Numbered from the stretch's first letter, positions 2,511 to 18,887 are shown. The stretch: 18,887 nucleotides of DNA from a virus (IMGVR_UViG_2778261087_000008), one strand, 5' to 3'. Numbers and translations: made by a program. Notes: generated from the sequence alone by a model not told the origin.

Positions 2511-2519
2511 TGGTATACT
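2511..2519 (+). promoter_or_regulatory. Candidate extended -10 element (TGgTATACT) in the gcd-hpt intergenic segment, rightward; possibly the native hpt promoter now pointing into the island
   Basis: tggtatact at 2511-2519 fits TGnTATAAT at 5 of 6 hexamer positions plus the TG; no convincing -35. Hand-read only. Confidence 0.25.
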
Positions 2520-2596
2520 GCGTGTCTTGCGCTTTGTTGCGGTGCCAAAACCTGCCCGTGCGAAGTGATTTGTTTTTAAATCATATGGTTAGAGAT

Positions 2597-2615
2597 ATGA
2601 AACATACTGTAGAAG
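2597..2615 (+). repeat. attL core (hpt start-codon remnant)
   Basis: atgaaacatactgtagaag; matches the hpt start at 18351-18369 at 18 of 19 positions (c vs t at position 11). Lies 205 bp after the gcd start codon, which is where I recall the hpt ATG sitting in K-12. Continues as a 15-codon remnant ORF MKHTVEAKNFVFSCF ending at 2644. Confidence 0.7.
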
Positions 2616-2741
2616 CAAAAAACTTCGTGTTTTCATGCTTTTAGATGATTTCGTGAAATCTCCATTTTGATTTTTATTATCAGTAAGATACGATTGTTTT
2701 TGTTCGTATGTTTATGCGTTTTTTTCGACTGTAGCAACGAA

Positions 2742-2787: not shown

Positions 2788-4011
2788 ATGGCTGGCACAA
2801 ACAAACTGAGCGACAAAAAGCTAAAAGCATTGCTGGGTTCTGAGCGTGAAGCGCCGATCATGATTGCCGATGGTGAGGGGCTAAGCGTTAAGGTCTCGAA
2901 GCAAGGTAACGTTAGCTGGGTATTTTCATACCGGTTGGGAGGAAGGGGTAGCAAACTCGAACGTTTAACGCTTGGCCGTTACCCTGATATGCCGCTAAAA
3001 CTTGCGCGAGAAAAGCGGGAACAGTGTCGCCAGTGGCTGGCTGGTGGGCTTGATCCGAAAACTGAGATTGAGCTGAGCACAGAAGAAACGCTTAAGCCTG
3101 TAACGGTTAAAGACGCCCTGGAATATTGGTTGGTGAATTACGCCAGGAGAAAGCGCAGTGATGAGGCGTTGGTGAGGGCGCAGCTACGCAAGCATATTTA
3201 CCCGCGCCTTGGTCGTTATCCGATCACCAGATGTGAAACCCGCCATTGGGTGGCCTGTTTTGACGAAATAAACCAGACTAAACCCATGACCGCCGGCCGC
3301 ATGTTCCAGATTTCTAAACAGGCGTTACGTTTCTGCAAGGTTCGCCGTTATGCTGCCAGTGATGCTCTGGCCTTTCTCACCATTCAGGATGTAGGCCAGC
3401 CATCTGGTCAACGTGATCGCGTATTGTCAGATAGCGAGCTGGCTGATGTGTGGCGCTGTACAGATAGCGATGATCAGCAGCCGTATTATTCACGTCTGCT
3501 CAAAATGCTGGTGCTTTTTGGTGCGCGAACGATGGAAGTTCGCCTTTCTCGATGGTCAGAGTGGGATTTTACATCGTGGATTTGGACTGTACCGAAAGAG
3601 CATAGCAAAACCCGAGAGAAAATCGTGAGGTCGATACCTGAAGCTATACGCCCGTGGCTGGAAGAGTTAAAGCGCGAGACAGGGAAAACAGGTTTGTTAC
3701 TGGGCGAAGATCGTACCCGTCAGGCTGTATCATTGAAAGGGCGCAGGCTTTTTAAAGATTTTCACCATAACGAGCCGTGGACACTTCACGATCTGCGTCG
3801 GACGTTTTCTACGGGGCTAAACAATATGGGTATAGCACCGCATATAGTCGAGCTGCTGTTGGGCCATGCCTTGCCGGGAGTTATGGCGATTTATAACCGT
3901 AGTCTTTACTTACCGGAGAAGCTGGACGCGCTGAACAAGTGGTATGACCGCTTAGAACTTCTCGCGGGTAATCACTCTAATATCGTTATTTTAAAGGCTG
4001 GTGAAAAATGA
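2788..4011 (+). CDS. int: Tyrosine site-specific integrase (P4-like phage integrase family)
   Basis: 407-aa ORF next to the left attachment site; C-terminal catalytic region contains HDLRRTF and LLGHALPGVMAIYNRS, consistent with the R..H-x-x-R..Y signature of tyrosine recombinases. Confidence 0.9.
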   Translation: MAGTNKLSDKKLKALLGSEREAPIMIADGEGLSVKVSKQGNVSWVFSYRLGGRGSKLERLTLGRYPDMPLKLAREKREQCRQWLAGGLDPKTEIELSTEETLKPVTVKDALEYWLVNYARRKRSDEALVRAQLRKHIYPRLGRYPITRCETRHWVACFDEINQTKPMTAGRMFQISKQALRFCKVRRYAASDALAFLTIQDVGQPSGQRDRVLSDSELADVWRCTDSDDQQPYYSRLLKMLVLFGARTMEVRLSRWSEWDFTSWIWTVPKEHSKTREKIVRSIPEAIRPWLEELKRETGKTGLLLGEDRTRQAVSLKGRRLFKDFHHNEPWTLHDLRRTFSTGLNNMGIAPHIVELLLGHALPGVMAIYNRSLYLPEKLDALNKWYDRLELLAGNHSNIVILKAGEK

Positions 4012-4811
4012 GAATTAGCCACAAAAAAGATTTGCCAACATGGTTTGATTTAGATAACTACACTCAATTTATTGGCATGTCAGATAAAGACTTATTTTAT
4101 CAGTTGGTTGTTAGATATGACATGCTTGAAAACTTCTATCGATATGGCGGGTCTTTTTATAATGAACCTCTTACAAATAACGATGAAGTAGGAAGGATAC
4201 TTGGAAATGGCGCGGTCGCTAATGCGATTGATAGAGCTACGTACTTCTATGATGCGTTTAAACTTCCTATTAAAAGAGAAGGTGTTTTGTCTGGTGGGGT
4301 TGCGTTACGACCAATGTCCATTGAAGACTTTATTTATATGAAAGATGCTGTAGATAATTATATGGAAAATAATTTTACGGGAACGGCTGAAAATTTAGTT
4401 TACCATTCATTTACAAGTGTTAGCTCATTTTTGGAACCAAATGACCTTTTTATTAAAGTTGATTTGTCACGCCCGGATGATTTATTGATTGATGTGTTTA
4501 AAAAAAACCTCAAGAATTGGCGTGAGGAATTAAAAATAAAAGAAAAGGAAAAAACATACCAGTCATGGGAAACAATTAAAAAAAAGGTATACGATTATTC
4601 ACTTTTCCCCGTAGTTGATTTGATGATCTGGGCTAAATCTCGCGGGGCATGCGTCACCAATGGCGTGCTTGCTGTGGCTGTGTTTCCGAACGGAGAGTAT
4701 GACTCAACGCAGATAGCGCAAACCGTAAAGCCAAATATAGAAAAAATCTTCTCAATTTCTTCTATAGAAAAAATCAGGTCAGAACTTCAGGATAGAAAAA
4801 TTCTTCCTTAA
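4008..4811 (+). CDS. Hypothetical protein, AT-rich cargo gene of unknown function
   Basis: 267-aa ORF whose ATG overlaps the int stop (ATGA at 4008-4011); sampled 60-bp lines give roughly 30% GC versus roughly 55-58% in the packaging module (approximate hand counts); no motif I can recognise. Confidence 0.75.
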   Translation: MRISHKKDLPTWFDLDNYTQFIGMSDKDLFYQLVVRYDMLENFYRYGGSFYNEPLTNNDEVGRILGNGAVANAIDRATYFYDAFKLPIKREGVLSGGVALRPMSIEDFIYMKDAVDNYMENNFTGTAENLVYHSFTSVSSFLEPNDLFIKVDLSRPDDLLIDVFKKNLKNWREELKIKEKEKTYQSWETIKKKVYDYSLFPVVDLMIWAKSRGACVTNGVLAVAVFPNGEYDSTQIAQTVKPNIEKIFSISSIEKIRSELQDRKILP

Positions 4812-4906: not shown

Positions 4907-5191
4907 ATGCAAATTATCACCTTTACCCCGCCAAATCCTGAACAACGCCGCACCATTCTGGAGGAGTACGGCTTCAAGTTCGATCGCCGAATCCGCGAAG
5001 ATGAATGCAGCGAGATCACCAGTCTTTCTCGTTCGAGCCGCTGGAAGATGGAACAGCAGGGGCGCTTCCCGCCGCGCTGTCACTTTGGCCGCAACAGCTG
5101 TGCCTGGCTTCTTTCGGATGTGCTCTGGTGGGTTCGTAATCCGCCTGCCGTGGAAAACGTCAATAACCCGTACAGCCGCAAATCTGCTTAA
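4907..5191 (+). CDS. alpA: AlpA-family transcriptional regulator / excisionase-like DNA-binding protein
   Basis: 94 aa from the ATG at 4907, preceded by GGAGG at spacing 6; region ITSLSRSSRWKMEQQGRFPPRCHFGRNSCAWLLSDVLWWV matches the AlpA helix-turn-helix pattern (S.S..W......G.FP.......R...W...DV..W). The track ORF starts 20 codons earlier at 4847. Confidence 0.75.
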   Translation: MQIITFTPPNPEQRRTILEEYGFKFDRRIREDECSEITSLSRSSRWKMEQQGRFPPRCHFGRNSCAWLLSDVLWWVRNPPAVENVNNPYSRKSA

Positions 5192-5211: not shown

Positions 5212-5895
5212 ATGAAAAATATTAATGCCCTTAACGGGCAGGGATTCGCTCACCCTGTTGCCAGTAAAAGCGATATTAGCGTGCAGCTTAAACAGCTTCC
5301 TGCCGTCGAATTTCACGGGCAACGCGTGGTGACGTTCGCAATGATTGATACCGCGCACCAGCGACCTAAAGACACGGCTAAAAAGACTTTTCAGCGTAAT
5401 CGTACTCGCTTCATTGATGGTGAGGACTTTTTTATTGTCGGCGCGTCAGAGGTCGAATGGGGAGGGGCTGGATATTTAGACAGGGGCATTAAACGCCCTG
5501 GCAAAAAAATGAACAGTCCGATACGTGGCCGCGTAACACTGATTACGGAATCAGGCTATCTGCTGCTGACCAAACCGTTTAACGATGATTTGGCCTGGCA
5601 GGTACAGCGCCAGCTCGTGAAAGCTTATTTCCGTTGCCCGGAGTTTGTCACTTTCCATCATGTGGATCTGCCGTCGCTCGAAGAACTGATCGCCATGCCG
5701 GTTACTGATGCGCAAAACGCCGTGACTCGTGCGGACAAGCATTCTAAGCAGTTTCATGGCTCACAGGGCAGTAATGGAATGAATCTCCGCAAGAAGGAAC
5801 TCAAAGTTCTGCGTCCGGCGGTACGGCTGGTAGATGCGATGGGGCAGATTGATTTCGATAAATATGAGTGGGAGGCGGCACATGATCGCGCATAA
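5212..5895 (+). CDS. ORF6N-domain phage regulatory protein (putative antirepressor-like)
   Basis: 227-aa ORF; N-terminal segment QRVVTFAMIDTAHQRPKDTAKKTFQRNRTRFIDGEDFFIV resembles the ORF6N/KilA-N-type consensus (..KRN.ERFPEDFMF..). Confidence 0.65.
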   Translation: MKNINALNGQGFAHPVASKSDISVQLKQLPAVEFHGQRVVTFAMIDTAHQRPKDTAKKTFQRNRTRFIDGEDFFIVGASEVEWGGAGYLDRGIKRPGKKMNSPIRGRVTLITESGYLLLTKPFNDDLAWQVQRQLVKAYFRCPEFVTFHHVDLPSLEELIAMPVTDAQNAVTRADKHSKQFHGSQGSNGMNLRKKELKVLRPAVRLVDAMGQIDFDKYEWEAAHDRA

Positions 5896-5921
5896 AACAA
5901 AGGCGACCGGGGGCGGTCGCC
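5890..5921 (-). terminator. Rho-independent terminator for the leftward regulator operon
   Basis: Hairpin ggcgaccg-gggg-cggtcgcc (5902-5921); on the minus strand it is followed by tttgtttta. Confidence 0.5.
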
Positions 5922-5988
5922 AATGGATACACACTAAACTTGAACGCATCACCAACAATGCCACATTTGCGGCTGGTGGGCAATGTGA

Positions 5989-6162
5989 TCAGTCAGATTT
6001 GGTTCGTCCCAAGGTTTGCAACGAGAGCTTTTTCCTGTGCTCTTTAAGGAATTTCTCAAGAGCAAACGAACAAGGTGCGAATCTTTCTGATTCATGCTCT
6101 ATCTTTCTGCGCCGTCTTTTCCGTGCCGGTGATAATGTTTTGGTCAATTCTTTATCGGTCAT
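5989..6162 (-). CDS. Small basic hypothetical protein, second gene of the leftward operon
   Basis: 57 aa from the internal ATG at 6162 (AGGA 7 nt upstream); arginine/lysine-rich (ARKRRRRK); sits between the RHH gene and the terminator. Confidence 0.4.
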   Translation of the reverse strand: MTDKELTKTLSPARKRRRRKIEHESERFAPCSFALEKFLKEHRKKLSLQTLGRTKSD

Positions 6163-6219
6163 TGTGTTGTCCTGCATAGCAATGCGCCGTAGTTACTCAC
6201 ACCACGGCGCTGATAGTGA

Positions 6220-6417
6220 TTATTCTGATTCTTTGGCCTTCCGGCGCTGTTCATATTTTAATTTGCGTCCACAGGCATCTAAGACCCATGCGGAAAAATT
6301 AGCACTAGGATTAGTTAATTTTTCTTGTTCAACGCTGGCATCAATCCCATCTATAAGCTCATGTGGGAATCGAATATTTTTCTTTGCTGATTTGTTGTTT
6401 GTGTTACCGCTAGACAT
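6220..6417 (-). CDS. Ribbon-helix-helix (Arc/Mnt-like) transcriptional repressor
   Basis: 65-aa ORF; segment IRFPHELIDGIDASVEQEKLTNPSANFSAWVLDACGRKL fits the Arc-type RHH pattern; GAGG ribosome-binding site upstream; transcribed divergently from the replication genes across an operator-rich intergenic region. Confidence 0.6.
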   Translation of the reverse strand: MSSGNTNNKSAKKNIRFPHELIDGIDASVEQEKLTNPSANFSAWVLDACGRKLKYEQRRKAKESE

Positions 6418-6445
6418 TGATGCACCTCACTTAAATGGACTTTAT

Positions 6446-6527
6446 GGGCGCACACAATACAGCAAAAAAAATGAGATGTTAAGTATTGACATGTGCGCAC
6501 ACATGATTTTAATCTGTGCGCACAGTT
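6446..6527. promoter_or_regulatory. Divergent promoter/operator region with palindromic TGTGCGCACA sites
   Basis: Perfect 10-bp palindrome tgtgcgcaca at 6492-6501 and 6515-6524, plus a half-site gcgcacaca at 6448-6456; TTGACA hexamer at 6486-6491 directly abuts the first palindrome. Confidence 0.5.
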
Positions 6528-6622
6528 TGAGTTTTGTCACTCAAATTAAGCAACGCCCCGCAGTGCTCGCAACACATGCAGGGCGTCTAACCACCAACGA
6601 TAGCAAGAGTATCGAGGTAGCT

Positions 6623-6826
6623 ATGAGAAATCATACCACACACCCGCAAGGGCGGGACTCGCACAACCTGAATAAATACATCTGGCGTTTTATCGCCCTG
6701 AGCACGGCACAACCGCGCGTGATTACCATTGAGGCCACCAGCGAACAGGAAGCACGCCAGCAATCCCCGGCTGGCTGCGTGATGGTATTCGCCGCCCGTA
6801 TTCGTCAGGGGGTGTGCCATGCCTGA
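6623..6826 (+). CDS. Small hypothetical protein (67 aa), first gene of the rightward operon
   Basis: ATG at 6623 preceded by GAGG; stop overlaps the start region of the next ORF (6819), suggesting translational coupling. It is the 3' portion of the long track ORF 5834..6826, whose upstream part is judged spurious. Confidence 0.4.
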   Translation: MRNHTTHPQGRDSHNLNKYIWRFIALSTAQPRVITIEATSEQEARQQSPAGCVMVFAARIRQGVCHA

Positions 6827-7145: not shown

Positions 7146-7445
7146 ATGAGAACATATTTATCTGGCTTGACTGCCAGCGGTTATGCACACCCAAAAATTA
7201 TCCCCGGCGCTATTTATCTGGATAAGAACGGTAACAGAGTAACGGTAAAAGAGCTGATGTTTGACCGTGTTTATTTTATTCGTGATGGCTATTCATTTCA
7301 TAGTTCGCTGAACGTGGAGATCTTTATTAGCAGATTCAGGCGGGAAATCCCGCTTTCCAGAAATAACCATGTGTCACGTGTGGATGTAGATAAAAAACTA
7401 CAGGAACTGAAAAACATGATTGCCGCGTGGAGAGAGCAGAAATGA
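7146..7445 (+). CDS. Hypothetical protein (99 aa)
   Basis: ORF with a GGGGA ribosome-binding site; its stop overlaps the primase start (ATGA at 7442-7445). Confidence 0.55.
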   Translation: MRTYLSGLTASGYAHPKIIPGAIYLDKNGNRVTVKELMFDRVYFIRDGYSFHSSLNVEIFISRFRREIPLSRNNHVSRVDVDKKLQELKNMIAAWREQK

Positions 7446-9565
7446 AAAAAGCGCCAAATTTAAAACACCAGCCGCGTGACAAAATGACGGAAGTCATCAT
7501 TTTTGCGGGTAGTAATGCGTGGGCACATGCGAAGCAGTGGCAGGAACAGGACGGGCGACTGGCTGGCGATAACGTGCCTCCTGTCTGGCTTGGAGAGCAA
7601 CAACTTGCCGAACTGGACAACCTGCAAATCGTACCGGACGGACGCTATCGCGTGCGTCTCTATCAGGCGGGGTTATTGCGTCCGGGGCTTGTTAATACCA
7701 TCGGGCAGAAACTGGCAGCGGCAGGTGTCAGGGATGCTGATTATTACCCTGAAGGAATGCACAGCCAGAAACGGGAGAACTGGCGCGAATATCTGGAACG
7801 TGAACGGGCAGAGCAGGCGGAAAAGAAAAAGGTAGTTGAACTGCCTGTAAAGAAAAAAGAGCCATGCTATCAGGATGATGAATTAAAGCCCCGCGTTGAA
7901 AGTCGCGCCGATGGTGTTTTCTGGGTAACGCCCAAAGTGGATAAGCAGTCAGGTGAAATTATCCGGCCTGAGACGTGGTTATGTTCTCCGCTTGAACTAC
8001 TGGGAACGGGGACGATCGGTAAAGAGCATTACCGCGTGATGCGCTGGAAAAAAACCGCAAACCATGAAGTCATCACAATGGCGATCCCGTGTGGTGGTAT
8101 CGGCGACCGTGACGGCTGGCGGTTACTTAAAGATCACGGGCTGAACGTGACAACCAACGGCAAATACAGGGCAATCCTGGCGGACTGGATGCAGTTAAGC
8201 GGAAGCCATGAGGAATGGCAGTTAAGCACAACAACGGGCTGGCATTTTGGCGCGTACATCATGCCGGACGGTTCGATCATTGGTGATTCTGAAAAACCGA
8301 TCCTGTTTACCGGAAAAAGCGCCGCGATTAACGGTTATTCCGTGGCGGGTACGGCGGAGGGCTGGCGCGAGAGTGTGGCGCGGCTGGCTGGCGGTAATGC
8401 CTCAATGATGCTGGGTGTGGCAACGTCACTGGCAGCGCCTTTAATTGGCCTTGTGGGTGCTGACGGCTTCGGGGTGCATCTTTTCGAACAGTCATCGGCA
8501 GGTAAGACCACCACGCAGAACATCGCATCAAGTTTATGGGGAGAGCCGGACGCACAACGGCTTACCTGGTACGGAACGGCGTTAGGTATCGCCAACGAGG
8601 CAGAGGCGCACAACGACGGGCTGTTACCCCTGGATGAAATAGGCCAGGCCGGAAACGCGCGGGAGGTGTCCACGTCAGCCTATACGTTGTTTAACGGCTC
8701 CGGGAAATTACAGGGGGCGAAGGACGGCGGCAACCGGGAGATAAAACACTGGCGCACGGTGGCAATCAGCACCGGAGAAATGGACGTTGAGACATTCCTC
8801 AAAACGGAGGGGATAAAAGTCAAAGCGGGGCAGCTTGTCCGCCTGCTTAACGTTCCGATGGAAAAAGCCACGCAATTTCACGAATACAGCACCGGAAAGG
8901 CGCACGCAGACGCGTTAAAAGATGCCTGGACAGAAAATCACGGGGCGGCGGGTCGTGAATGGGTTAAATGGCTGGCAGACCACCAGCAGGAGGCAAAGGA
9001 TACGGTAAGGGAATGCCGCGAACGGTGGCGCAACCTGATACCGGATAGCTACGGCGAGCAGGTCCACCGCGTGGGGGAACGTTTCGCGATACTGGAGGCT
9101 GCGCTTGTGCTTTCCGGTCATGTAACTGGCTGGGCCGCGCAGGAATGCCGGGACGCAATACAGCATAACTTTAATGCCTGGGTGAAGGAGTTCGGCACGG
9201 GTAATAGGGAATTTAAACAGATGGTTGAACAGGCTGAGGCGTTTTTGTCGTCGTTCGGGTTCAGTCGATACCTTCCTTACCCAAACAGTGATGAGCGTGA
9301 TTTACCGATTAAAGACCTTGCCGGATACAGAAAGGGGAGTATCAGAAATGAAGATGATGAGTTCCGTTTTTACACGTTTCCTCATGTGTTTGAGGGGGAG
9401 ATCGCACAGGGATTTAACCCATCCCACTTTGCCCGCGCGTTGAGTGCTGCCGGAATGCTGGAAGCGGGTAACGATCGCCGTTACAAGAAAAAGGCGCTCG
9501 GCAAAATTGGGGGTAAGCAGCATGTTTTTTACGTGATGATGTTCCAGCCTGAGGCAGAAGATTAA
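7442..9565 (+). CDS. Replication initiator primase-helicase (Pri-Rep type, P4 alpha-like role)
   Basis: About 707 aa from the ATG at 7442 (GGAG 9 nt upstream); Walker A-like FEQSSAGKTTTQ in the central domain; large multidomain protein immediately followed by an iteron cluster. Family assignment by pattern memory, not search. Confidence 0.8.
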   Translation: MKKAPNLKHQPRDKMTEVIIFAGSNAWAHAKQWQEQDGRLAGDNVPPVWLGEQQLAELDNLQIVPDGRYRVRLYQAGLLRPGLVNTIGQKLAAAGVRDADYYPEGMHSQKRENWREYLERERAEQAEKKKVVELPVKKKEPCYQDDELKPRVESRADGVFWVTPKVDKQSGEIIRPETWLCSPLELLGTGTIGKEHYRVMRWKKTANHEVITMAIPCGGIGDRDGWRLLKDHGLNVTTNGKYRAILADWMQLSGSHEEWQLSTTTGWHFGAYIMPDGSIIGDSEKPILFTGKSAAINGYSVAGTAEGWRESVARLAGGNASMMLGVATSLAAPLIGLVGADGFGVHLFEQSSAGKTTTQNIASSLWGEPDAQRLTWYGTALGIANEAEAHNDGLLPLDEIGQAGNAREVSTSAYTLFNGSGKLQGAKDGGNREIKHWRTVAISTGEMDVETFLKTEGIKVKAGQLVRLLNVPMEKATQFHEYSTGKAHADALKDAWTENHGAAGREWVKWLADHQQEAKDTVRECRERWRNLIPDSYGEQVHRVGERFAILEAALVLSGHVTGWAAQECRDAIQHNFNAWVKEFGTGNREFKQMVEQAEAFLSSFGFSRYLPYPNSDERDLPIKDLAGYRKGSIRNEDDEFRFYTFPHVFEGEIAQGFNPSHFARALSAAGMLEAGNDRRYKKKALGKIGGKQHVFYVMMFQPEAED

Positions 9566-9589
9566 CTCCCCTGTGTGAGGTGAAAAGTT

Positions 9590-9711
9590 GCGGGTTATGC
9601 GGGTTATCCTGTGCATAAGTGAATTAACTGCATGAATAAAAAGGAAATCAATAACCCGCACGTAACCCGCAAAACGGCAGTTATAACCCGCAAAAGTGCG
9701 ATTATAACCCG
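9590..9711. repeat. Iteron cluster 1 (candidate replication origin): GCGGGTTAT x2 tandem, AT-rich spacer, ATAACCCGC x4 inverted
   Basis: Forward copies at 9590-9598 and 9599-9607; reverse copies at 9651, 9663, 9683 and 9703 with roughly 10-21 bp phasing; AT-rich segment between them; lies directly downstream of the primase-helicase gene. Confidence 0.65.
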
Positions 9712-9776
9712 CAGAATTTCACCGTAAGGGTGTAAACAAGCGTAACTATCAACGTTAAAACCGGAGAACAGACAGC

Positions 9777-10199
9777 ATGACAGCACAGATAGCAGCTTAC
9801 GGGCGGCTGGTGGCTGCCCCGCAGTTAAAGACCACCAGCAAGGGCACACAAATGGCTATGGCAAGCATGGCGGTCCCCCTGCCGTGCAATCAGGCAGATG
9901 ACGGACAGGCGACGATGTGGTTATCCGTCCTGGCGTTTGGCAGACAGGCCGACGCACTGGCAAAACACCACAAAGGCGAGCTGGTGAGCGTGGCGGGTAA
10001 CATGCAGGTAAGCCAGTGGACAGGCCAGAACGGGGAAACGCGGCAGGGCTGGCAGGTTATCGCAGACAGCGTAATCAGTGCCAGAACGGCGCGACCTGGT
10101 GGCAAAAAAGGCCAGCAGGGCCAGGCTACTGACGCTCTAAATAGGGCTAAGCAACAGGCGGGGAATGATGATCCATATGGGGATAACATACCCTTTTAG
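9777..10199 (+). CDS. Single-stranded DNA-binding protein (SSB-like)
   Basis: 140-aa ORF; N-terminal OB-fold-like pattern (IAAYGRL..., W..VLAFG...W); Gly/Gln-rich linker; C-terminal acidic tail ending DNIPF, like the DDDIPF tail of bacterial SSB. Confidence 0.75.
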   Translation: MTAQIAAYGRLVAAPQLKTTSKGTQMAMASMAVPLPCNQADDGQATMWLSVLAFGRQADALAKHHKGELVSVAGNMQVSQWTGQNGETRQGWQVIADSVISARTARPGGKKGQQGQATDALNRAKQQAGNDDPYGDNIPF

Positions 10200-10738: not shown

Positions 10739-11908
10739 ATGAAGAAATTAATCGAACTCCGCCAGCAAAAAAACGCCCTGAAAAACCAGATGCGATCCCT
10801 GCTGGAAAAAGCCGACAGTGAAAACCGTAGTCTGAACGCTGAAGAAGGCAAACAGTTTGATGAACTGCGTGCAAAAGCTGATGCCCTCGACACAGAAATT
10901 TCCCGCCTCGAGTCTGTGGCTGATGAAGAACGCAGCAAGCCAGGAACGGGCATCCAGAAATTATCATCTGATGAATTGCGTAACTACATCGTAACCGGAG
11001 ATGTGCGATCACTGTCCACCAGCACTGACAGCGGCAGGGATGGCGGATATACCGTAATTCCTGAGCTTGATCGCGAAGTCATGCGCCAGCTACAGGATGA
11101 CAGTGTTATGCGCGTGATCGCGACCGTGAAGACCGCAAAATCAAATGAGTTTCAGAAACTGGTTTCCACTGGCGGCGCAACTGTAGGACGAGGCACAGAA
11201 GGCAGCGCACGCAGTGAAACCAACACCCCGAAAATTGAACGCGTAACCATCAAGCTGAATCCGATCTACGCCTACCCGAAAACCACGCAGGAAATCCTGG
11301 ATTTTTCAGAGGTGGATATTCTGGGCTGGTTATCCTCCGAAATTGCCGACACGTTCGCCAGCACCGAAGAGGATGATTTTGTTAATGGCGACGGTAACGG
11401 CAAGCCGAAAGGCTTCATGGCTTACACCCGTGCGGCGACCAGTGACAAAACCCGCGCTTTTGGCACCATTGAAAAAATAGTAGCGGCAAGTGGAACCGCC
11501 ATTACAGCGGACGAACTGATCGACATTCTCTACAAGCTGAAAGCGAAATACCGCAAAAATGCCGTCTGGGTGATGAACTCGGGCACGGCAGGGACACTAC
11601 AGAAGCTGAAAAATGAGAACGGCGATTATATCTGGCGCGACAGCCTTAAAGAAGGTGCGCCGGATATGTTGCTTGGTCGTCCTGTTTACTGCCTGGAGTC
11701 CATGCCGGACATCGGCGCAGGAAAAGCACCGCTAGCGGTTGGCGATTTCAGTCGTGGTTATTTCATCGTTGATCATGTAACAGGGATTCGCACCCGACCG
11801 GACAACATTACTGAACCCGGATTCTACAAGGTCCACACGGATAAATATCTGGGCGGTGGTGTGGTGGATTCAAACGCCATCAAAATTCTGGAAATGAAAG
11901 CTGGCTAG
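10739..11908 (+). CDS. Phage major capsid protein, HK97 family, with N-terminal coiled-coil delta (scaffold-like) domain
   Basis: 389-aa ORF; charged, heptad-like N-terminal 70 residues; remainder typical in length and composition for HK97-fold capsid proteins; adjacent to prohead protease and portal genes. Confidence 0.88.
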   Translation: MKKLIELRQQKNALKNQMRSLLEKADSENRSLNAEEGKQFDELRAKADALDTEISRLESVADEERSKPGTGIQKLSSDELRNYIVTGDVRSLSTSTDSGRDGGYTVIPELDREVMRQLQDDSVMRVIATVKTAKSNEFQKLVSTGGATVGRGTEGSARSETNTPKIERVTIKLNPIYAYPKTTQEILDFSEVDILGWLSSEIADTFASTEEDDFVNGDGNGKPKGFMAYTRAATSDKTRAFGTIEKIVAASGTAITADELIDILYKLKAKYRKNAVWVMNSGTAGTLQKLKNENGDYIWRDSLKEGAPDMLLGRPVYCLESMPDIGAGKAPLAVGDFSRGYFIVDHVTGIRTRPDNITEPGFYKVHTDKYLGGGVVDSNAIKILEMKAG

Positions 11909-11921
11909 TCATGAGTAAGGA

Positions 11922-11942
11922 GGAGGCTGCGGCCTCCTTTTT
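11922..11942 (+). terminator. Hairpin plus T-run immediately after the capsid gene (candidate partial terminator)
   Basis: ggaggc-tgcg-gcctcc followed by ttttt; sits 14 bp after the capsid stop. Confidence 0.45.
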
Positions 11943-11962
11943 CAGCTTTATGGAGTACACCG

Positions 11963-12523
11963 ATGAAAAACACCGATTTTGAAATCCGCACATCTGAACT
12001 GACCGCCAGCAATAAAAAGCTGGTGGGGTATGCCGTTCGCTGGAACAGCCTTTCAGAAATTATCTGGGACGAATTCCGCGAACAGTTCACGCCGGGGGCT
12101 TTTGCTGACTATCTGGCGGCGGGTAATGATGTGCGCTGCCTGTATGAGCATGACTATACCCAACTGCTGGGGCGCACCAAATCCGGCACTCTGGTACTGA
12201 CTGAGGATAACACCGGGTTACGTTTTGAACTGACACCGCCGGATACCCAGCTTGGAAAAGATGTGCTTACGCTGGTGGAGCGTGGCGACATTACAGGAAT
12301 GAGCTTTGGTTTTCGCGCATTATGCGAGGAGTGGAGTATCGCGCAAAAACCGTATTTGCGTACCGTAACCGCCGCTGAACTCCGTGAAATCACAATAACG
12401 TCGATGCCTGCTTATCCAGAATCTGGCGTGGAGATTGCCCACCGTTCGTTGTTTGCACAGCACCCTGAATTATGCCCGACAGGAAATAATCGTCATCGCT
12501 GGTCTGAGCTGGCGGGGTTGTGA
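11963..12523 (+). CDS. Phage prohead (head maturation) protease, HK97 family
   Basis: 186-aa ORF with the characteristic motifs EHDYTQLLGR and GMSFGF of the HK97 prohead protease family. Confidence 0.88.
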   Translation: MKNTDFEIRTSELTASNKKLVGYAVRWNSLSEIIWDEFREQFTPGAFADYLAAGNDVRCLYEHDYTQLLGRTKSGTLVLTEDNTGLRFELTPPDTQLGKDVLTLVERGDITGMSFGFRALCEEWSIAQKPYLRTVTAAELREITITSMPAYPESGVEIAHRSLFAQHPELCPTGNNRHRWSELAGL

Positions 12524-12524
12524 T

Positions 12525-13739
12525 ATGTGGTGGCCTTTTAGTCGTAAAAAAAGCGAGCAGCGTAACCTGTCCATTGATGATTTTCTGGCGCTGTCCGGCG
12601 TACCGAATACCGGATCCGGAGAATATGTTTCTGCCGGGACGGCTGAATCATTGCCTGCAGTGATGAATGCGGTTTCTGTCATCGCTGAGGCGGTGGCCAC
12701 GATGCCGTGTTATCTGTATCTGGTACGTAATGACAAGGGAAGGGAGGCGCGGGAATGGCTGGACAGTCACCCGGTAGATATTCTGCTGAATGAGCAGCCT
12801 AATTCGTGCCAGACACCTTACCAGTTTAAACGCACAATGATGCGTCACTGCCTGCTGAACGGTAACGCCTATGCGGTTATTGAGTGGGGGCAGGACGGGC
12901 AGCCAAAATCACTTCATCCTTATGCGCCGGGGTGTGTTGTACCGGAACGCACAGGCGCACACAAATACCGCTATACCATCACCGAACCCTATACAGGAAC
13001 GGTGCGCACGTATTTACAGGAAGAAGTTCTGCATCTCCGCTATGCCTCGGATGATGGCTTTCTGGGGCGCTCCCCCGTCACGATTTGCCGTGAGGCACTT
13101 GGGCTTGGCCTTGCTCAACAGCGCCACGGAGCCAGCATTATGAAAGATGGCATGATGGCGGCAGGGATTATCACGTCAGGCGAATGGCTGGACGGCGTGA
13201 AAGGTAAACAGGCATTGGATGCTCTGGAACGCTACAAGGGGGCGAAAAATGCCGGAAAAACGCCAATCCTTGAAGGGGGCATGGATTACAGGCAACTGGG
13301 AATGAGTAACCAGGATGCGGAATGGCTGGCCTCCCGTCGCTTCTCCATTGAAGACATCGCCCGCATGTTCAACGTATCGCCTATTTTTCTGCAGGAATAC
13401 AGCAACAGCACCTACAGCAATTTCAGCGAGGCAAGCCGCGCGTTTCTGACCATGACAATGCGCCCGTGGCTGGCGAACTTCGAACAGCAAATCAAGGCCG
13501 CTTTGCTGGTGGCTTCTCCCGTACCTGGTACCCGTTATCTGGTTGAGTTTGATTCAGCCGATTTATTACGCGCCACACCCACCGAACGTTATGCCACGTA
13601 TGAGAAAGGGATTAAGAACGGGATCATGAATCCGAACGAAGCCCGTGAGCGTGAGGGTATGCCGCCGCGTGAAGGTGGTGATGAGTTCAGCCAGGCATGG
13701 AAACAGACTGTGGAAATTAAAGGGAGAAAAGATGAGTGA
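12525..13739 (+). CDS. Phage portal protein, HK97 family
   Basis: About 404 aa from the ATG at 12525, 1 nt after the protease stop; size and position fit a portal. The track ORF 12435..13739 starts earlier and overlaps the protease gene. Confidence 0.85.
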   Translation: MWWPFSRKKSEQRNLSIDDFLALSGVPNTGSGEYVSAGTAESLPAVMNAVSVIAEAVATMPCYLYLVRNDKGREAREWLDSHPVDILLNEQPNSCQTPYQFKRTMMRHCLLNGNAYAVIEWGQDGQPKSLHPYAPGCVVPERTGAHKYRYTITEPYTGTVRTYLQEEVLHLRYASDDGFLGRSPVTICREALGLGLAQQRHGASIMKDGMMAAGIITSGEWLDGVKGKQALDALERYKGAKNAGKTPILEGGMDYRQLGMSNQDAEWLASRRFSIEDIARMFNVSPIFLQEYSNSTYSNFSEASRAFLTMTMRPWLANFEQQIKAALLVASPVPGTRYLVEFDSADLLRATPTERYATYEKGIKNGIMNPNEAREREGMPPREGGDEFSQAWKQTVEIKGRKDE

Positions 13740-14034
13740 AGCCAGAATTACACCTGATGAAGTCAGGGCACATCTTCGACTTGATGATGATTTATCCGGT
13801 GAAGGCGAACTTCTGAAAATGTATACCGATGCGGCGCTGGAAGCCTGCCAGAAGCATATCGGGAAACGTTTTGAAGACGGGCTGGAATTTACCCCGGCAA
13901 TGCGTGTTGGTTGCCTGATGTACATCGCTTTCCTGTACGAGAACCGGGAAGCGGTTTCACCAGTGGAGCACTCGGAACTGCCTATGGCTATTTCTGCGCT
14001 CTGGTCAGTTTATCGTGACGTAGGGGTGTACTGA
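13732..14034 (+). CDS. Phage head-tail connector (gp6-like) protein
   Basis: 100 aa from the ATG at 13732, overlapping the portal stop; N-terminal ITPDEVRAHLRLDDD matches the family pattern (..EVK.HLRID.D). Confidence 0.75.
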   Translation: MSEARITPDEVRAHLRLDDDLSGEGELLKMYTDAALEACQKHIGKRFEDGLEFTPAMRVGCLMYIAFLYENREAVSPVEHSELPMAISALWSVYRDVGVY

Positions 14035-14474
14035 TGCCGTGGCAACCATTAAGGCGATGCACTGAGCCTGGCTGTAATAAGCGCGTGAAGTCCGGCAAGT
14101 GTGAAGAGCACAGGCGGGCTGCATGGCGTGCAGAGGATGCCAGACGGGGACACCGCCGCGCGCGCGGGTATTCCCGACAGTGGGACAAATACCGCGCCCT
14201 GTACCTGAGCAAAAACCCGTTATGCGTGCGTTGTCTGGCTAAGGGGATTTATACGCCAGCTCTTGTGGTGGATCACATCATTCCCATCAATGGCGGCGGT
14301 GATGTTCTCTTCTGGCCTGAGTGGAATCACCAGGCATTGTGCCAGACGTGCCACAACCGTAAGACGACACGGGAAGATCCAGCCACGAAAGCAAACCGTA
14401 AAGCGGGCATGTATCGCGAGCAGGAAGAACGGGCGGCACACCGTAACGACTGGATGTATGGCGATGATGACTGA
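14034..14474 (+). CDS. HNH endonuclease (packaging-associated)
   Basis: 146-aa ORF with Cys-rich N-terminus and HNH motif DHIIPI...NHQALCQTCHNRKT; located directly upstream of the terminase genes. Confidence 0.85.
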   Translation: MPWQPLRRCTEPGCNKRVKSGKCEEHRRAAWRAEDARRGHRRARGYSRQWDKYRALYLSKNPLCVRCLAKGIYTPALVVDHIIPINGGGDVLFWPEWNHQALCQTCHNRKTTREDPATKANRKAGMYREQEERAAHRNDWMYGDDD

Positions 14475-14643
14475 ACAGGAGCAAACCAGGCTGATACGTG
14501 GACTGATAAGGCAGCGTGACACATGGAAGACACAGGAGACAGAGCACAAAGCCAACAGGACAGGGCGCACAAAACGCACCACAGCGAAGCGATTAACCGA
14601 CCGTGACCGCGAGGTCATGGAATGTTTTCGCAATCGCTGGTGA
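14458..14643 (+). CDS. Small basic hypothetical protein (61 aa), uncertain
   Basis: ORF overlapping the HNH 3' end in another frame; arginine/lysine-rich; no clear ribosome-binding site. Confidence 0.3.
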   Translation: MAMMTEQEQTRLIRGLIRQRDTWKTQETEHKANRTGRTKRTTAKRLTDRDREVMECFRNRW

Positions 14644-14651
14644 GGCCGTCA

Positions 14652-14711
14652 GAGGGGGTGGGGGTGGTTTTCAGGACGAAACCGTCCCTGCCGGACACCG
14701 ACCGCCCCCTC
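14652..14711. promoter_or_regulatory. G-rich nested inverted repeats upstream of terS (candidate cos / terminase recognition site)
   Basis: gagggggtgggggtgg ... ggacgaaaccgtcc ... ccccctc: outer arms GAGGGGG/CCCCCTC and inner arms ggacg/cgtcc, followed by an AT-rich tract (aatttttttgaaaataatt) before the terS ATG. Confidence 0.3.
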
Positions 14712-14762
14712 AAATTTTTGTGCACGGGAATTTTTTTGAAAATAATTGGGCGAAAAAAGAAC

Positions 14763-15119
14763 ATGGCAAGACCACCAAAAGCCCCCGCTTACCTGGATGA
14801 AATCGCGGTCAGGCAGTGGAAGGAAAAATCGCGCCAGCTTTCCGGGCGGGAAGACCTTACCCCCGCCGACTGGAGCAATCTGGAACTGTATTGTGTTAAC
14901 TACTCCATATACCGCAAAGCCGTCGAAGACCTTGCGACGCGCGGGTTCAGCATTGTTAACAGTCAGGGCAGCGAGAGCAGAAACCCCGCCCTGAGCGCAA
15001 AGGCTGACGCAGAAAGAATAATGATCAAAATGGCTTCTTTGCTGGGTTTTGACCCGGTAAGCCGCCGCAGAAATCCACCGGAAACAGAGGAAGAGGACGA
15101 GCTTGACCGCCTGGCATGA
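14763..15119 (+). CDS. Terminase small subunit (P27-family-like)
   Basis: 118 aa from the ATG at 14763 (MARPPKAPAYL...); acidic C-terminus; position immediately upstream of TerL. The track ORF begins at 14622 within the G-rich region. Confidence 0.78.
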   Translation: MARPPKAPAYLDEIAVRQWKEKSRQLSGREDLTPADWSNLELYCVNYSIYRKAVEDLATRGFSIVNSQGSESRNPALSAKADAERIMIKMASLLGFDPVSRRRNPPETEEEDELDRLA

Positions 15120-16764
15120 GTACGCAGAAGGCGTAAAAAACGGCAAAATTACGGCCTGTAAACGACTGAAACAGGCCGTTAAACGGTATTTTTCTGACCT
15201 TGAAAACCCCCTTTACACGTTCGATCCGGAGGTCGTGGAGCGGTTTATTGCCTTTTCCAGGGTGTGTCCGCACGTAAAAGGCGCAATGCGCGGTAGCCCC
15301 ATTGAGCTGGAGCCGTGGCAGCAGTTCGCCTTTGCGTGCATCCTGGGCTTTAAGGTTAAGGCCACCGGACGGCGCAAATACACCAGCGCATTCATTGAAG
15401 TACCGCGAAAAAATGCCAAATCCACGGTCGCCGCTATCCTGGCTAACTGGTTTCTGGTTATGGAAAACGGGCAGCAGGATATTTACACCGCCGCCGTGAG
15501 TCGTGATCAGGCGCGGATCGTGTTTGATGATGCGCGTCAGATGTGCCTTTTATCCCGACCGTTACGAAAGCGGGTAAATATTCAGGCACACAAGGTGATA
15601 CACCCGAAAACCAACAGCCTGTTAAAGCCACTGGCAGCAAAAGCGGCAACCATTGAAGGTACAAATCCGAGTCTTGCCATTGTGGATGAATATCACCTGC
15701 ACCCTGACAACGGGGTTTATTCCGCACTTGAGCTGGGGATGGGGGCGCGTCCGGAGGGGCTGTTATTTGCCATCACCACATCGGGGAGCAACGTTGTTTC
15801 AGCCTGTAAACAACACTATGACTATTGCTGTCAGATACTGGATGGTGAAGAGATGAACGAATCCATGTTCGTTCTGATTTACGAGCTGGATGATGAAAGC
15901 GAGGTTGACGATCCGGCGATGTGGATAAAGGCGAATCCAAATATCGATGTTTCCGTCGATCGTGAAAAACTGGCCTCAACCATCCAGAAAGCGCGGGGTA
16001 TTCCGTCGCAGTGGGTGGAAATGCTCACCAAGCGATTCAATATCTGGTGTCAGGGGGCTACGCCGTGGATGGGTAACGGTGCATGGGCGGAGTGCGCCGG
16101 AACGTTCGCGGAGGCGGATTTATACGGGCAGGAGTGCTACGCGGGGCTGGACTTATCATCAACCAGCGATATTTCCAGCGTGTGCTATGCCTTTCCGGTC
16201 GGTAAAAAGATTATGCTGGTTTCCCGTCACTATCTGCCGGAATTTCAGCTACAGAACCCCGCCAATAAAAACCGCGCCATCTATCGCCAGTGGGTAAAGG
16301 CGGGCTGGATACGCACAACACCGGGTGACTGCATTGATTATGACCGTATCCGTGATGACATCATGGCGGATGCAGAGAATTTCAATATCAGGCTGGTGGG
16401 CTTTGATACGTGGAACGCCACGCACCTGAGAACGCAGTTACAGGGGGCAGGCTTTGAGGTGGAGCCGTTCCCGCAAACCTACCTTCGTTTCAGTCCGGCG
16501 GCGAAATCGTTCGAGGTTTTTGTTAACCGGAAGGTGATTGTGCATCGTGGTGATCCGGTGCTGGCCTGGTCAATGAGTAATGTTGTGATGCAGAGTGACG
16601 CGAACGCCAATATCAAGCCGAACAAGAAAAAATCATCCAACAAGATAGACCCGAGCGTTGCGGCGCTGATGGCGTTTGGCACATTCCAGGCTGAGCATGA
16701 GGAATTTGCATTTGATATGAGCGACAGCCAGAAAGAGCGACTAGCGGCATTTGATGGGGTATGA
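15103..16764 (+). CDS. Terminase large subunit
   Basis: 553-aa ORF; ATPase region with Walker A-like VPRKNAKST and Walker B-like LAIVDEYH; apparent TTG start at 15103 (GAGGA 5 nt upstream) overlapping the terS 3' end by 17 nt. Confidence 0.88.
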   Translation: MTAWHEYAEGVKNGKITACKRLKQAVKRYFSDLENPLYTFDPEVVERFIAFSRVCPHVKGAMRGSPIELEPWQQFAFACILGFKVKATGRRKYTSAFIEVPRKNAKSTVAAILANWFLVMENGQQDIYTAAVSRDQARIVFDDARQMCLLSRPLRKRVNIQAHKVIHPKTNSLLKPLAAKAATIEGTNPSLAIVDEYHLHPDNGVYSALELGMGARPEGLLFAITTSGSNVVSACKQHYDYCCQILDGEEMNESMFVLIYELDDESEVDDPAMWIKANPNIDVSVDREKLASTIQKARGIPSQWVEMLTKRFNIWCQGATPWMGNGAWAECAGTFAEADLYGQECYAGLDLSSTSDISSVCYAFPVGKKIMLVSRHYLPEFQLQNPANKNRAIYRQWVKAGWIRTTPGDCIDYDRIRDDIMADAENFNIRLVGFDTWNATHLRTQLQGAGFEVEPFPQTYLRFSPAAKSFEVFVNRKVIVHRGDPVLAWSMSNVVMQSDANANIKPNKKKSSNKIDPSVAALMAFGTFQAEHEEFAFDMSDSQKERLAAFDGV

Positions 16765-17054
16765 CGAGAATGACTGAAACCGATCTACTAAAAATAATTC
16801 GCTGCGTTACCGGAGTCTGCCAGGCAACAGGCAAACCGGAGGCCAAGCAGCCGGATACCGTCACCGCTGAAAATTACGCGCGTGTGGTGGCTAAGGTGAT
16901 GCGCCGTGACGGTATTGAGCTTAACGGCGTGGATATGCGCAACATACGAACCAGAGTCCTTGAGTTGCTGGCATACCGTCGCCGTTCTCAACAACGGAGG
17001 GAGAGCGCGAAAAATAATTACCAGTGGAAGAAGCCGGAACGGTTGCGGCGGTAG
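16761..17054 (+). CDS. Hypothetical protein (97 aa), basic C-terminus
   Basis: ATG overlaps the terL stop (ATGA at 16761-16764); last ORF of the island; no motif recognised. Confidence 0.5.
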   Translation: MTRMTETDLLKIIRCVTGVCQATGKPEAKQPDTVTAENYARVVAKVMRRDGIELNGVDMRNIRTRVLELLAYRRRSQQRRESAKNNYQWKKPERLRR

Positions 17055-17093: not shown

Positions 17094-17393
17094 ACTGGCG
17101 CGGTTACGGCGGTGACACGCACCGAGGCAGAACAATTACCGTAGGTTAAAGCGACAGTATTCACACCAAAGGCAGAAATTAGCGGTTAACGTAACTGACT
17201 GATATTTTCAGGAACAGCCAACGGCTGAGGCCGGAGCTATAAGAATAGCTTTGGGTACAGTCCTCAGTTTTGAGGGATGTTAACCAACTGAATAATAAGC
17301 AAACCTCAAAATTGAGTTTTGTATCTGCCTGAGTTATTTCTGTGCTAACTTGTTGATATTCCAGACGGCCCAAAAATGGGTTGGCTGGTGGGT

Positions 17394-17511
17394 GAGTTGC
17401 AGATTTGCAACTCGACCATGAAACTACGGAAACTACCCGTAGTTTGGGTAGTAAGAGCAACACCCAGATTTTGGGGCTTACTCGCGATCCCCAAATAAAG
17501 GGGATCGGTGG
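17394..17511. repeat. 118-bp hairpin-dense repeat, copy 1
   Basis: Matches 17828-17945 at 113 of 118 positions; contains hairpins gagttgca-gatt-tgcaactc, aaactacgg-aaactac-ccgtagttt (overlapping the alternative ctaccc-gtagttt-gggtag) and gatcccc-aaataaa-ggggatc. Confidence 0.8.
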
Positions 17512-17541
17512 CATCACTGGCCCCACTTTCCTGATGTGTTT

Positions 17542-17693
17542 GCGGGTTATTTGGGAGAGGTTGCGGGTTATTTTGAATGACTTGCGGGTTACGATTTGGC
17601 TAACATTTGAACATGTCATTTTTCAACGCATTGATATTAAATAATAAAAAATACTTAGCACGCGAAGATAACCCGCTAACCCGCATAACCCGC
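17542..17693. repeat. Iteron cluster 2: GCGGGTTA(T) x3 phased at 21 bp, AT-rich spacer, ATAACCCGC x3 tandem inverted
   Basis: Forward copies at 17542, 17563 and 17584; AT-rich 17600-17665; reverse copies at 17668-17693. Same motif and architecture as cluster 1 at 9590-9711. Confidence 0.6.
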
Positions 17694-17827
17694 ACTGTTT
17701 TGTATATATATACGAAAAATTGCATTCAGGAGGGGTAGCAAAATCCCTACCGTCTCTTATCTCTTGGAGTGCCCGCCTCTTCGAATTTTAACCCCCGTGA
17801 AATTACAAAATTTCCCTGACTGATGGC

Positions 17828-17945
17828 GAGTTGCAGATTTGCAACTCGACTATGAAACTACGGAAACTACCCGTAGTTTGGGTAGTAAGAGTAACACCCA
17901 GATTTTGGGGCTTACTTGCGATACCCAAATACAGGGGATCGGTGG
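17828..17945. repeat. 118-bp hairpin-dense repeat, copy 2
   Basis: About 96% identical to 17394-17511; the five mismatches include taa to tac at the position of the copy-1 mini-ORF stop. Confidence 0.8.
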
Positions 17946-18262
17946 AAGAAATATCGTTTCTCATATGTGAGTACCGAGGGCGGAATTCCGCCTTCGGTTA
18001 CTTATTGTGCTCATGCACAGGGAGGGGCGGGTCAAATCTCTGTACCCTGACGTCTTCCGGACTGCCCGCTCCATCGATTTTTTATACCCGCGAAAAATGC
18101 TTCACGCTGGTGGGCATGATGCGTGGGGATGCTGATAATGGGTTATTGTGGGATAGATGTCTCATACAATAAGAGATTCATAATTTGCTTTTTAATACTG
18201 TTATACTCGCCGCCTTTCTACCGTGCTCATGCTTTCGCATATTTTCGGCTTTGTGCAATAAT

Positions 18263-18286
18263 CCGTATATCACTCGGTGTATCACT
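18263..18286 (+). repeat. Repeat ccgtatatcact + cggtgtatcact, candidate integrase arm-type binding sites (right arm)
   Basis: Shares 19 consecutive bp (tatcactcggtgtatcact) with 2747-2765; 64 bp upstream of the attR core. Confidence 0.5.
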
Positions 18287-18350
18287 TTTAGCTAAAATGC
18301 ATGGCGTGTTTGTTAATTTAACTGATTAAAATCAGTGGGATATAAAGTTT

Positions 18351-18369
18351 ATGAAACATATTGTAGAAG
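18351..18369 (+). repeat. attR core (first 19 nt of hpt)
   Basis: atgaaacatattgtagaag; direct repeat of 2597-2615 with one mismatch. Confidence 0.7.
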
Positions 18370-18887
18370 TAATGATCCCCGAAGCGGAGATTAAAGCGCG
18401 TATCGCCGAACTGGGTCGTCAGATTACTGAGCGTTACAAAGACAGCGGCAGCGATATGGTGCTGGTTGGTCTGCTGCGTGGCTCATTTATGTTTATGGCG
18501 GACCTGTGCCGTGAAGTTCAGGTATCTCATGAAGTCGACTTTATGACCGCCTCCAGCTACGGTAGCGGCATGTCCACCACCCGTGATGTGAAAATCCTCA
18601 AAGATCTGGATGAAGATATCCGTGGCAAGGACGTGCTGATTGTTGAAGATATCATCGACTCGGGGAATACACTGTCGAAAGTGCGTGAGATCTTAAGCCT
18701 GCGCGAACCGAAGTCGCTGGCGATTTGTACGCTGCTGGATAAACCGTCCCGTCGTGAAGTGAACGTCCCGGTTGAATTTATCGGTTTCTCGATCCCGGAT
18801 GAGTTTGTGGTGGGTTACGGCATTGATTACGCACAGCGTTACCGTCATCTGCCGTATATCGGCAAAGTGATTCTGCTGGACGAGTAA
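18351..18887 (+). CDS. hpt: Hypoxanthine phosphoribosyltransferase
   Basis: 178-aa [25 protein letters not shown]... with PRPP-binding motif [14 protein letters not shown]; complete, ends taa at 18885-18887. Confidence 0.93.

Follow-up and report, generated by a model that had tools for sequence, protein, structure and literature searches.

The island at hpt and its head and packaging genes

The window, by which we mean the whole 18,887-nt stretch of DNA analysed (virus IMGVR_UViG_2778261087_000008), contains an island of 15,754 bp, measured between 20-nt att cores, that is inserted in the 5′ end of Escherichia coli hpt, as established by comparison with the empty site of E. coli K-12. An initial annotation, made from the sequence alone, had put the element at ~15.7 kb, which agrees with this length, and had read it as a capsid-forming satellite of the phage-inducible chromosomal island (PICI) type; gene content, gene order, size and synteny with EcCIEDL933, the prototype of E. 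coli O157:H7 EDL933 (NZ_CP008957.1 1680329–1694760, between roxA and phoQ), support that reading. Capsid-forming PICIs (cf-PICIs), a kind described in 2022, provide their own small capsid and packaging enzymes and use a helper phage for tails and lysis. They are frequent in Enterobacteriaceae, where self-made capsids and borrowed tails carry their DNA between species. The late genes of the island are given below; percentages here and in the later feature lists are identities to the EcCIEDL933 counterpart unless another reference is named, E-values follow the profile they belong to, and dN/dS is the ratio of non-synonymous to synonymous substitution rates.

10739–11908, + strand: HK97-fold major capsid protein (MCP) with N-terminal delta domain (PF05065, 1.9e-71; PDB 9GYI, 7e-154; 63%)
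11963–12523, + strand: S78 prohead serine protease (PF04586, 7e-46; 62%; dN/dS 0.09–0.15)
12525–13739, + strand: portal (PF04860, 1.9e-92, profile positions 1–321 of 321; 81%)
13732–14034, + strand: gp6-like head-tail connector, Ad1 type (PF05135, 3.9e-5; phrog_40 Ad1, 5.8e-29; 56%)
14034–14474, + strand: HNH endonuclease, packaging cofactor (PF01844, 8.8e-10; 84%)
14458–14643, + strand: 61-aa open reading frame (ORF) (phrog_3173; 77% to the EcCIEDL933 ORF between HNH and TerS)
14763–15119, + strand: TerS, P27 family (PF05119, 4.2e-23; 88%)
15103–16764, + strand: TerL with ATPase and nuclease domains (PF03354, 4.2e-26; PF20441, 1.7e-52; 93%; dN/dS 0.05–0.11)
16761–17054, + strand: conserved 97-aa ORF after TerL (phrog_1561, 2.2e-46; 65% to the EcCIEDL933 ORF after TerL)

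All seven genes that had been assigned to a head and packaging module at 10739–16764 were recovered with Pfam and PHROG, co-oriented on the + strand and uninterrupted. The ORFs stood as named, but two starts were moved: the portal begins at 12525 and not at 12435, and TerS begins at 14763, a longer 165-aa TerS (start 14622) having been rejected because its upstream stretch carries an indel relative to EcCIEDL933. Two small ORFs of the same block, of 61 aa (14458–14643) and 97 aa (16761–17054), had not been listed before; the former is, by gene order, the ortholog of EcCIEDL933 gene 1792, whose mutation severely reduced transfer. The absence of tail, tail-fibre, holin and endolysin genes was borne out by a Pfam/PHROG scan of every ORF on both strands, antisense ORFs and the 1.3-kb non-coding right end included, which returned no tail, holin or endolysin match, and a holin-like hydrophobic segment was absent from all small proteins of the island. 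The intactness check proposed with the initial annotation was run against homologues and gave no frameshift or truncation: module profile matches were essentially full length, protein lengths were within 0–4 aa of the EcCIEDL933 orthologs, Nei-Gojobori dN/dS against five relatives was 0.05–0.3 for all sizeable genes (purifying selection), and internal stops occurred in none of seven compared elements.

The capsid domain of the MCP begins at residue 102, which gives a delta domain of ~95 aa (about residues 1–95). Residues D257, K290, D295, E319 and R345 and the 22-aa ‘connector loop’ of the EcCIEDL933 capsid, which the T=4 capsid requires, are kept in the window MCP; in EcCIEDL933, mutating these residues cut or abolished transfer and deletion of the loop abolished it. 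PDB entry 9GYI is the T=4 capsid of EcCIEDL933 (10.1101/2025.02.11.637232). A comparison with 50,697 phage records put true phages (SfI, SfII, 118970_sal3) at only 36–37% identity to the MCP, and the few closer matches (61–77%) were satellite-sized records of 15–16.5 kb or short fragments.

E. coli chromosome flanks the island on both sides, with gcd (PQQ glucose dehydrogenase) at 1–2409 on the minus strand and a complete hpt at 18351–18887. The gcd–hpt gap of K-12, the empty site, is ~200 bp; K-12 sequence aligns to window positions 1966–2618 and 18350–18887, and the two alignments overlap in TATGAAACATAyTGTAGAAG. No tRNA or tmRNA gene lies in the window, and an Rfam scan of the whole window (E up to 0.1) returned no match. 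The following sites were delimited at the two ends.

2596–2615: attL core TATGAAACATACTGTAGAAG, from a three-way comparison with the empty K-12 gcd–hpt site
18350–18369: attR core TATGAAACATATTGTAGAAG, from the K-12 comparison; the island provides a new hpt start, with a T4I change
2742–2765, partner copy at 18263–18286: tandem CGGTGTATCACT repeats (direct-repeat family D2) just inside both island ends, probably arm-type integrase sites

The core TATGAAACATAYTGTAGAAG, the identity block common to attL and attR, spans the hpt start codon. Integration swaps the hpt promoter and first codons (window 2596–2643 and 18350–18372), so that the native start left at attL heads a 15-codon ORF and the restored Hpt begins MKHIVEV in place of native MKHTVEV, with Ile for Thr at residue 4. 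PICI integration at hpt has been reported (PMC10111431), and in two traits, insertion in hpt and a block common to attL and attR, the island conforms to the hpt-integrating PICI subfamily.

A head-tail junction without the PF05521 gene

The module of EcCIEDL933 comprises nine genes, and mutating each of them abolished transfer, save for one small hypothetical gene. Between portal and connector EcCIEDL933 encodes a 112-aa PF05521 head-completion protein (Hc1), annotated ‘head closure’, which seems to be what the Penadés papers call the ‘adaptor’; tail compatibility in cf-PICIs is set jointly by this ‘adaptor’ and the connector. The gene is absent from the window, and the module had therefore been called complete with some overstatement. 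Portal and connector overlap by 8 nt with no gene between them, and neither tblastn nor a head-closure hidden Markov model found an Hc1 in six frames of the window (best E 0.23, against 6.9e-63 for the control). No replacement gene was found in the island, and no extra gene is common to the Hc1-less elements.

These observations would suit a transfer-defective derivative of a cf-PICI, in which loss of Hc1 leaves DNA-filled or leaky heads that are unable to join tails and the island persists by vertical inheritance only; the essential nature of the prototype genes and the shared part of ‘adaptor’ and connector in tail choice both speak for it. Its distribution argues the other way. A junction query matched 534 of 5,426 complete E. 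coli genomes, and in ~143 of the 5,426, at ≥95% identity, portal, connector and HNH form one uninterrupted piece in which a head-closure gene is not annotated; the EcCIEDL933-type gene is present in 355 genomes of the set. The Hc1-less cassette was found at hpt (window and KSC9), between allE and allC (locus L009) and inside prophage terL (loci L007 and L008), that is, in elements at no fewer than three att sites (≥3), with integrases only 47–48% identical and two capsid types, and the ORFs are always intact. All 46 IMG/VR loci whose connector is ≥89% identical lack Hc1. Most of the distant relatives have the order portal-Hc1-connector, and the Hc1-less order recurs in Erwinia psidii, in Gilliamella and at several other loci; a connector search of a collection holding one genome per species returned only distant relatives. 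Within the Hc1-less class dN/dS is 0.10–0.21 for the connector and 0.06–0.12 for the portal, values of purifying selection that also count against a dead-end element. A transfer-defective derivative is thus improbable, and an intact, transferable cf-PICI is the reading preferred here.

As to how the junction arose, the module of one relative (L006) is otherwise 96–99% identical to that of the window and yet carries Hc1 together with a connector that is only 56% identical, from which it follows that the head-tail cassette is swapped as a unit; this agrees with the cassette exchange already described for cf-PICIs. A simple recent deletion of Hc1 was considered and rejected, since the whole connector is 56–57% identical to those of Hc1-containing relatives whereas the other genes are 96–99% identical. 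Recombination with the connector of a helper prophage was rejected as well, identity being 23–33% throughout and no closer than for Hc1-containing cf-PICIs. Between the Hc1 of cf-PICIs and that of HK97-like prophages, among them some with cf-PICIs embedded in them, identity is 50–63%, so that a helper-supplied Hc1 would be a reasonable substitute; in a lineage without the gene, the Hc1 function may be helper-derived and arrive with the tail, or may be dispensable.

Further observations concern the connector and its surroundings. The N-terminal half of the connector (13732–13880) diverges from that of the KSC9 island (81% identity) and the C-terminal half does not (98%), in modules that are otherwise 98–100% identical; the N-terminal half is a local hotspot, possibly on the side turned towards the tail or Hc1. 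Three loci hold helper-embedded cf-PICIs, lying inside terL of HK97-like prophages (L006 982–15807, L007 1175–16252, L008 1674–15960); the first of them has Hc1 and the other two do not. Each of the three host prophages has connector and head-closure genes of its own, and the tail gene set is full in the prophages of L007 and L008 and broken by an insertion sequence element in that of L006.

cos sites, right end and early genes

Two candidate cos sites were found in the island, the second of them behind a non-coding block at the right end.

14644–14762: cos-1, candidate own cos (G-box, CCGGAC, CCGCCCCCTC, T-run), a 119-nt spacer from the HNH side to TerS
17391–17945: non-coding right-end block, with a 121-nt element (17391–17511), iterons (17540–17693) and a second copy of the element (17825–17945)
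18012–18103: cos-2, second, phage-type cos, at 91–95% identity with the cos region that separates HNH from TerS in SfII, ST64B, 118970_sal3 and related phages

Judged from its sequence and position, the spacer 14644–14762 is most likely the island’s own cos. Its conservation with EcCIEDL933 is ~85%, a 1-nt indel marks it as non-coding, and it has the same layout as the cos of phiP27 and SfII. Both ends of the linear genome of Escherichia phage vB_KppS-Ant (LR881103.1) fall in the corresponding spacer: the first base of the record lies 22 nt ahead of TerS and the last, which aligns to 14677, lies past the small ORF that follows HNH, and its cos therefore lies in the same spacer as cos-1.

In phiP27 a 10-nt cos-site is annotated; cos-2 matches the region around it at 82% identity, and the counterpart of that 10-nt site in the window is TGCCCGCTCC at 18063–18072. 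As the terminase proteins of SfII and phiP27 are only 30–36% identical to those of the island, cos-2 is probably read by a phage terminase and not by the island’s own; SfII and phiP27 have tail sheath and tube genes and are thus contractile-tailed. Sequences like cos-2 occur in 1,650 of the 5,426 genomes, and KSC9 has the island copy only. Other Hc1-less cf-PICIs, whose integrases differ, and the classical PICI L010 likewise have the structured 121-nt element followed by cos-2 at the right end, whereas EcCIEDL933 has neither the element nor cos-2. Two cos sites are known in classical E. coli PICIs (PMC6739421); the cf-PICI literature examined makes no mention of a phage cos in such an island. 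For packaging evidence, IMG/VR was searched for cos-ended Hc1-less contigs, and none ends near the cos positions, most of these contigs being provirus calls from isolate genomes.

The two copies of the 121-nt element in the right-end block are 95% identical, can form four consecutive hairpins and have an RNA-fold z-score of −5 to −7 on either strand; the element has no Rfam match and is absent from the phage records searched. It is present, unannotated and usually in single copy, in 704 of the 5,426 E. coli genomes, and in classical PICIs and cf-PICIs alike the loci examined have it at the right end; where cos-2 occurs, the element lies directly upstream of it. The iterons between the copies (17540–17693) form a second cluster with TTGCGGGTTA three times and TAACCCGC three times, the same words as in the cluster at 9582–9712. 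A block homologous to 17540–17693 follows TerL in most related cf-PICIs; the only match in EcCIEDL933 is downstream of rep.

The remaining genes and features of the island precede the capsid gene.

2788–4011, + strand: tyrosine integrase (Pfam Arm-DNA-bind_3, Phage_int_M, Phage_integrase; 47% to EcCIEDL933 int)
4008–4811, + strand: DUF6387 accessory gene (PF19924, 2.3e-29; low GC, about 0.38–0.41)
4907–5191, + strand: AlpA-type regulator/excisionase (PF05930, 5.3e-10; phrog_2790, 1.9e-39; 47% to EcCIEDL933 AlpA)
5212–5895, + strand: ORF6N/anti-repressor-like protein (PF10543; PHROG anti-repressor families)
6623–6826, + strand: Icd-like small protein (98.5% to the KSC9 Icd-like protein)
7146–7445, + strand: DUF4222 protein (Pfam)
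7442–9565, + strand: DUF927 primase-helicase, pri-rep (PF06048, 1.1e-48; phrog_1139 DNA primase, 2.5e-182; 89%)
9582–9712: iteron cluster of TTGCGGGTTA and TAACCCGC words, just 3′ of rep, as in PICIs
9777–10199, + strand: single-stranded-DNA-binding protein (SSB) (PF00436; 70%)

The int, alpA and primase-helicase genes of the initial annotation are all present, and the ori that it had named probably corresponds to the iteron cluster at 9582–9712. An 82-aa ORF is also found in the rest of the island. The DUF6387 gene lies directly 3′ of int and overlaps its stop, the usual spot for cargo or defence genes of satellites; PADLOC, run on the accessory genes and ORFs of unassigned function including DUF6387, gave no defence match. 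A 330-aa ORF at 5834–6826 was not accepted as a gene, its supported part being the last 67 codons (the Icd-like protein) alone. Over 5971–6226 the window and EcCIEDL933 are 89% identical in nucleotides but only 67% identical in the frame of the 330-aa ORF, for which reason the ORF is probably spurious upstream of 6623. The opposite strand carries a YlcI/YnfO-like ORF at 6220–6417, and the region 5834–6826 is where the window departs from the KSC9 island.

Interpretation and comparison with known systems

With the gene content, orthology, intactness, purifying selection, att sites and cos homology described above, the window very likely holds an intact cf-PICI family member at hpt; its induction, capsid size, packaging and transfer are predicted by analogy with the prototype. 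On this prediction, which rests on orthology with EcCIEDL933, a helper phage would trigger AlpA-dependent excision, and replication by the DUF927 primase-helicase with SSB would start at the iteron ori. The late genes would then assemble the island’s capsid protein and portal into a small HK97-fold procapsid, probably T=4, the S78 protease would remove the delta domain, and TerS, TerL and HNH would cut and package unit-length DNA of 15.75 kb from the cos between HNH and terS. The gp6-like connector would cap the portal, with tails and lysis coming from the helper, and cos-2 would probably also let the terminase of an SfII/ST64B/phiP27-type phage package the island.

Some observations weigh against this account. 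No helper phage lies in the window. The missing Hc1 is, by gene order, among the EcCIEDL933 genes whose mutation abolished transfer. The maturation-site motif of the MCP is STSTDSGRD, as against SxGxxAD in EcCIEDL933 and HK97; residues 93–104 (window 11015–11050), which read STSTDSGRDGGY, carry a 2-aa insertion and do not fit SxGxxAD, so that the position of cleavage may differ. Finally, ~54 nt of the window spacer are missing at the vB_KppS-Ant junction, and that record may therefore not stop exactly at the cohesive ends.

A degraded HK97-like prophage that had lost its tail and lysis modules would also explain structural genes that are all of HK97-type phage ancestry and an MCP whose second-best PDB matches are phage and gene transfer agent (GTA) capsids. 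Against this stand the PICI-type early module (AlpA, DUF4222 and DUF927, the last at 89% to EcCIEDL933), the cf-PICI order with capsid first and terminase last, a size conserved at 15–16 kb across hundreds of genomes, and the absence of pseudogenes together with purifying selection and MCPs of real phages that are ≤37% identical; in line with the initial annotation, which had set the island apart from a degraded prophage, we consider such an origin very improbable. A domesticated GTA-like head module that packages random host DNA deserves still less credence, for although the MCP resembles the RcGTA capsid protein (1.6e-55), an integrase, att sites, a replication module, TerS, HNH and cos all belong to the island itself, among strains it occurs patchily and at varying locations, and its ortholog EcCIEDL933 packages itself specifically.

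The identification as a cf-PICI is in itself routine, the kind being already known, and only two points, the lack of an essential gene and the additional phage cos, may interest specialists. Hc1 was essential in mutagenesis of the prototype and is reported to determine tail choice together with the connector, yet it is missing from a sizeable natural lineage; such an Hc1-less lineage makes the question of which virion parts are stolen directly testable. A phage-type cos on a satellite with its own terminase bears on why some PICIs have two cos sites, and cos-2 suggests candidate helpers. Tentatively, and with rather more doubt than belief, a widespread cf-PICI sub-lineage may be proposed in which the line between what is made and what is stolen has shifted, Hc1 having been lost and a cos nearly identical to that of SfII/ST64B/phiP27-type phages gained, with tails joined through a helper Hc1 or by direct docking on the connector and packaging open to two terminases. 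If so, the island’s own terminase would fill small capsids and the helper terminase would fill helper capsids, and the helpers would belong to a group other than the lambdoid siphoviruses that have been reported for cf-PICIs to date.

With respect to classification, proteobacterial cf-PICIs are defined in 10.1101/2022.09.08.507074, 10.1101/2025.02.11.637232 and PMC10085698, and their published gene order is capsid-protease-portal-connector followed by hnh-terS-terL. The island has the size (about 10–18 kb, with att repeats), terminal integrase, AlpA regulation and own replication module of the class, its own capsid, protease, portal, gp6-like connector, HNH, TerS and TerL in the published order, no tail or lysis genes, and structural genes only distantly related to those of true phages; it departs from the class in lacking the PF05521 ‘adaptor’, the second head-tail gene of the nine-gene module. 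A prophage assignment is contradicted by the cf-PICI gene order and by the absence of tail, lysis and lysogeny modules or their remnants. Portal, TerL and connector, all present here, do not belong to a classical PICI and are ‘forbidden’ in the PICI model of SatelliteFinder. The cfPICI Types B and C of SatelliteFinder have 9–10 of 11 components, and Type B accounts for 459 of 969 catalogued elements (PMC10085698, which gives no functional reading of missing components); counted by hand, the island has 10 of the 11 core components and none for tail/holin, and by this count it is a cfPICI ‘Type B’.

Phages of the HK97, SfII and phiP27 types resemble the island in their HK97-fold MCP with delta domain, S78 protease, HNH-dependent cos packaging, P27-family TerS and HNH-cos-TerS arrangement; they differ in that their proteins are 30–37% identical, their genomes are ~40 kb, they carry tail, lysis and Hc1 genes, and their order is terminase-portal-protease-capsid. 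Classical E. coli PICIs (EcCICFT073 type; the clpS island L010) share the logic of the int-alpA-pri-rep early module, and some have two cos sites; L010 shares the right-end block of 121-nt element and cos-2 with the window at 94–95% identity. Unlike the window, they are without portal, TerL and connector and rely on helper capsid proteins and terminase.

The record of vB_KppS-Ant, a 16.5-kb linear ‘induced prophage’ genome obtained from induced particles, with the full cf-PICI gene set and an MCP 76% identical to that of the window, is a cf-PICI deposited as a phage; unlike the window it encodes Hc1 (‘gp9’) and has a large extra ORF following TerL, and its primase differs. The extra ORF (765 aa; locus L103, 2036–4333) is annotated as a tape measure protein and is probably a misannotated accessory gene.

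EcCIEDL933 has the same order as the window, from int, alpA, Icd-like, DUF4222, DUF927 and SSB to the MCP and on through the ORF after TerL, a similar length (15.4–15.5 kb versus 15.75 kb) and module proteins that are 56–93% identical in amino acid sequence. It differs in its att, at roxA–phoQ instead of hpt, and in its integrase, which is only 47% identical; the window in turn lacks the PF05521 gene, has two 121-nt elements, a second iteron cluster and a phage-type cos at its right end, and carries the DUF6387 and ORF6N accessory genes. The hpt island of E. coli KSC9 (NZ_CP018323.1), and with it L017 in IMG/VR, has the same att, an integrase of 100% amino acid identity, the same Hc1-less cassette and the same right end as the window; a regulatory segment of ~300 bp differs, and nucleotide identity is 98% over 96% of the window island.

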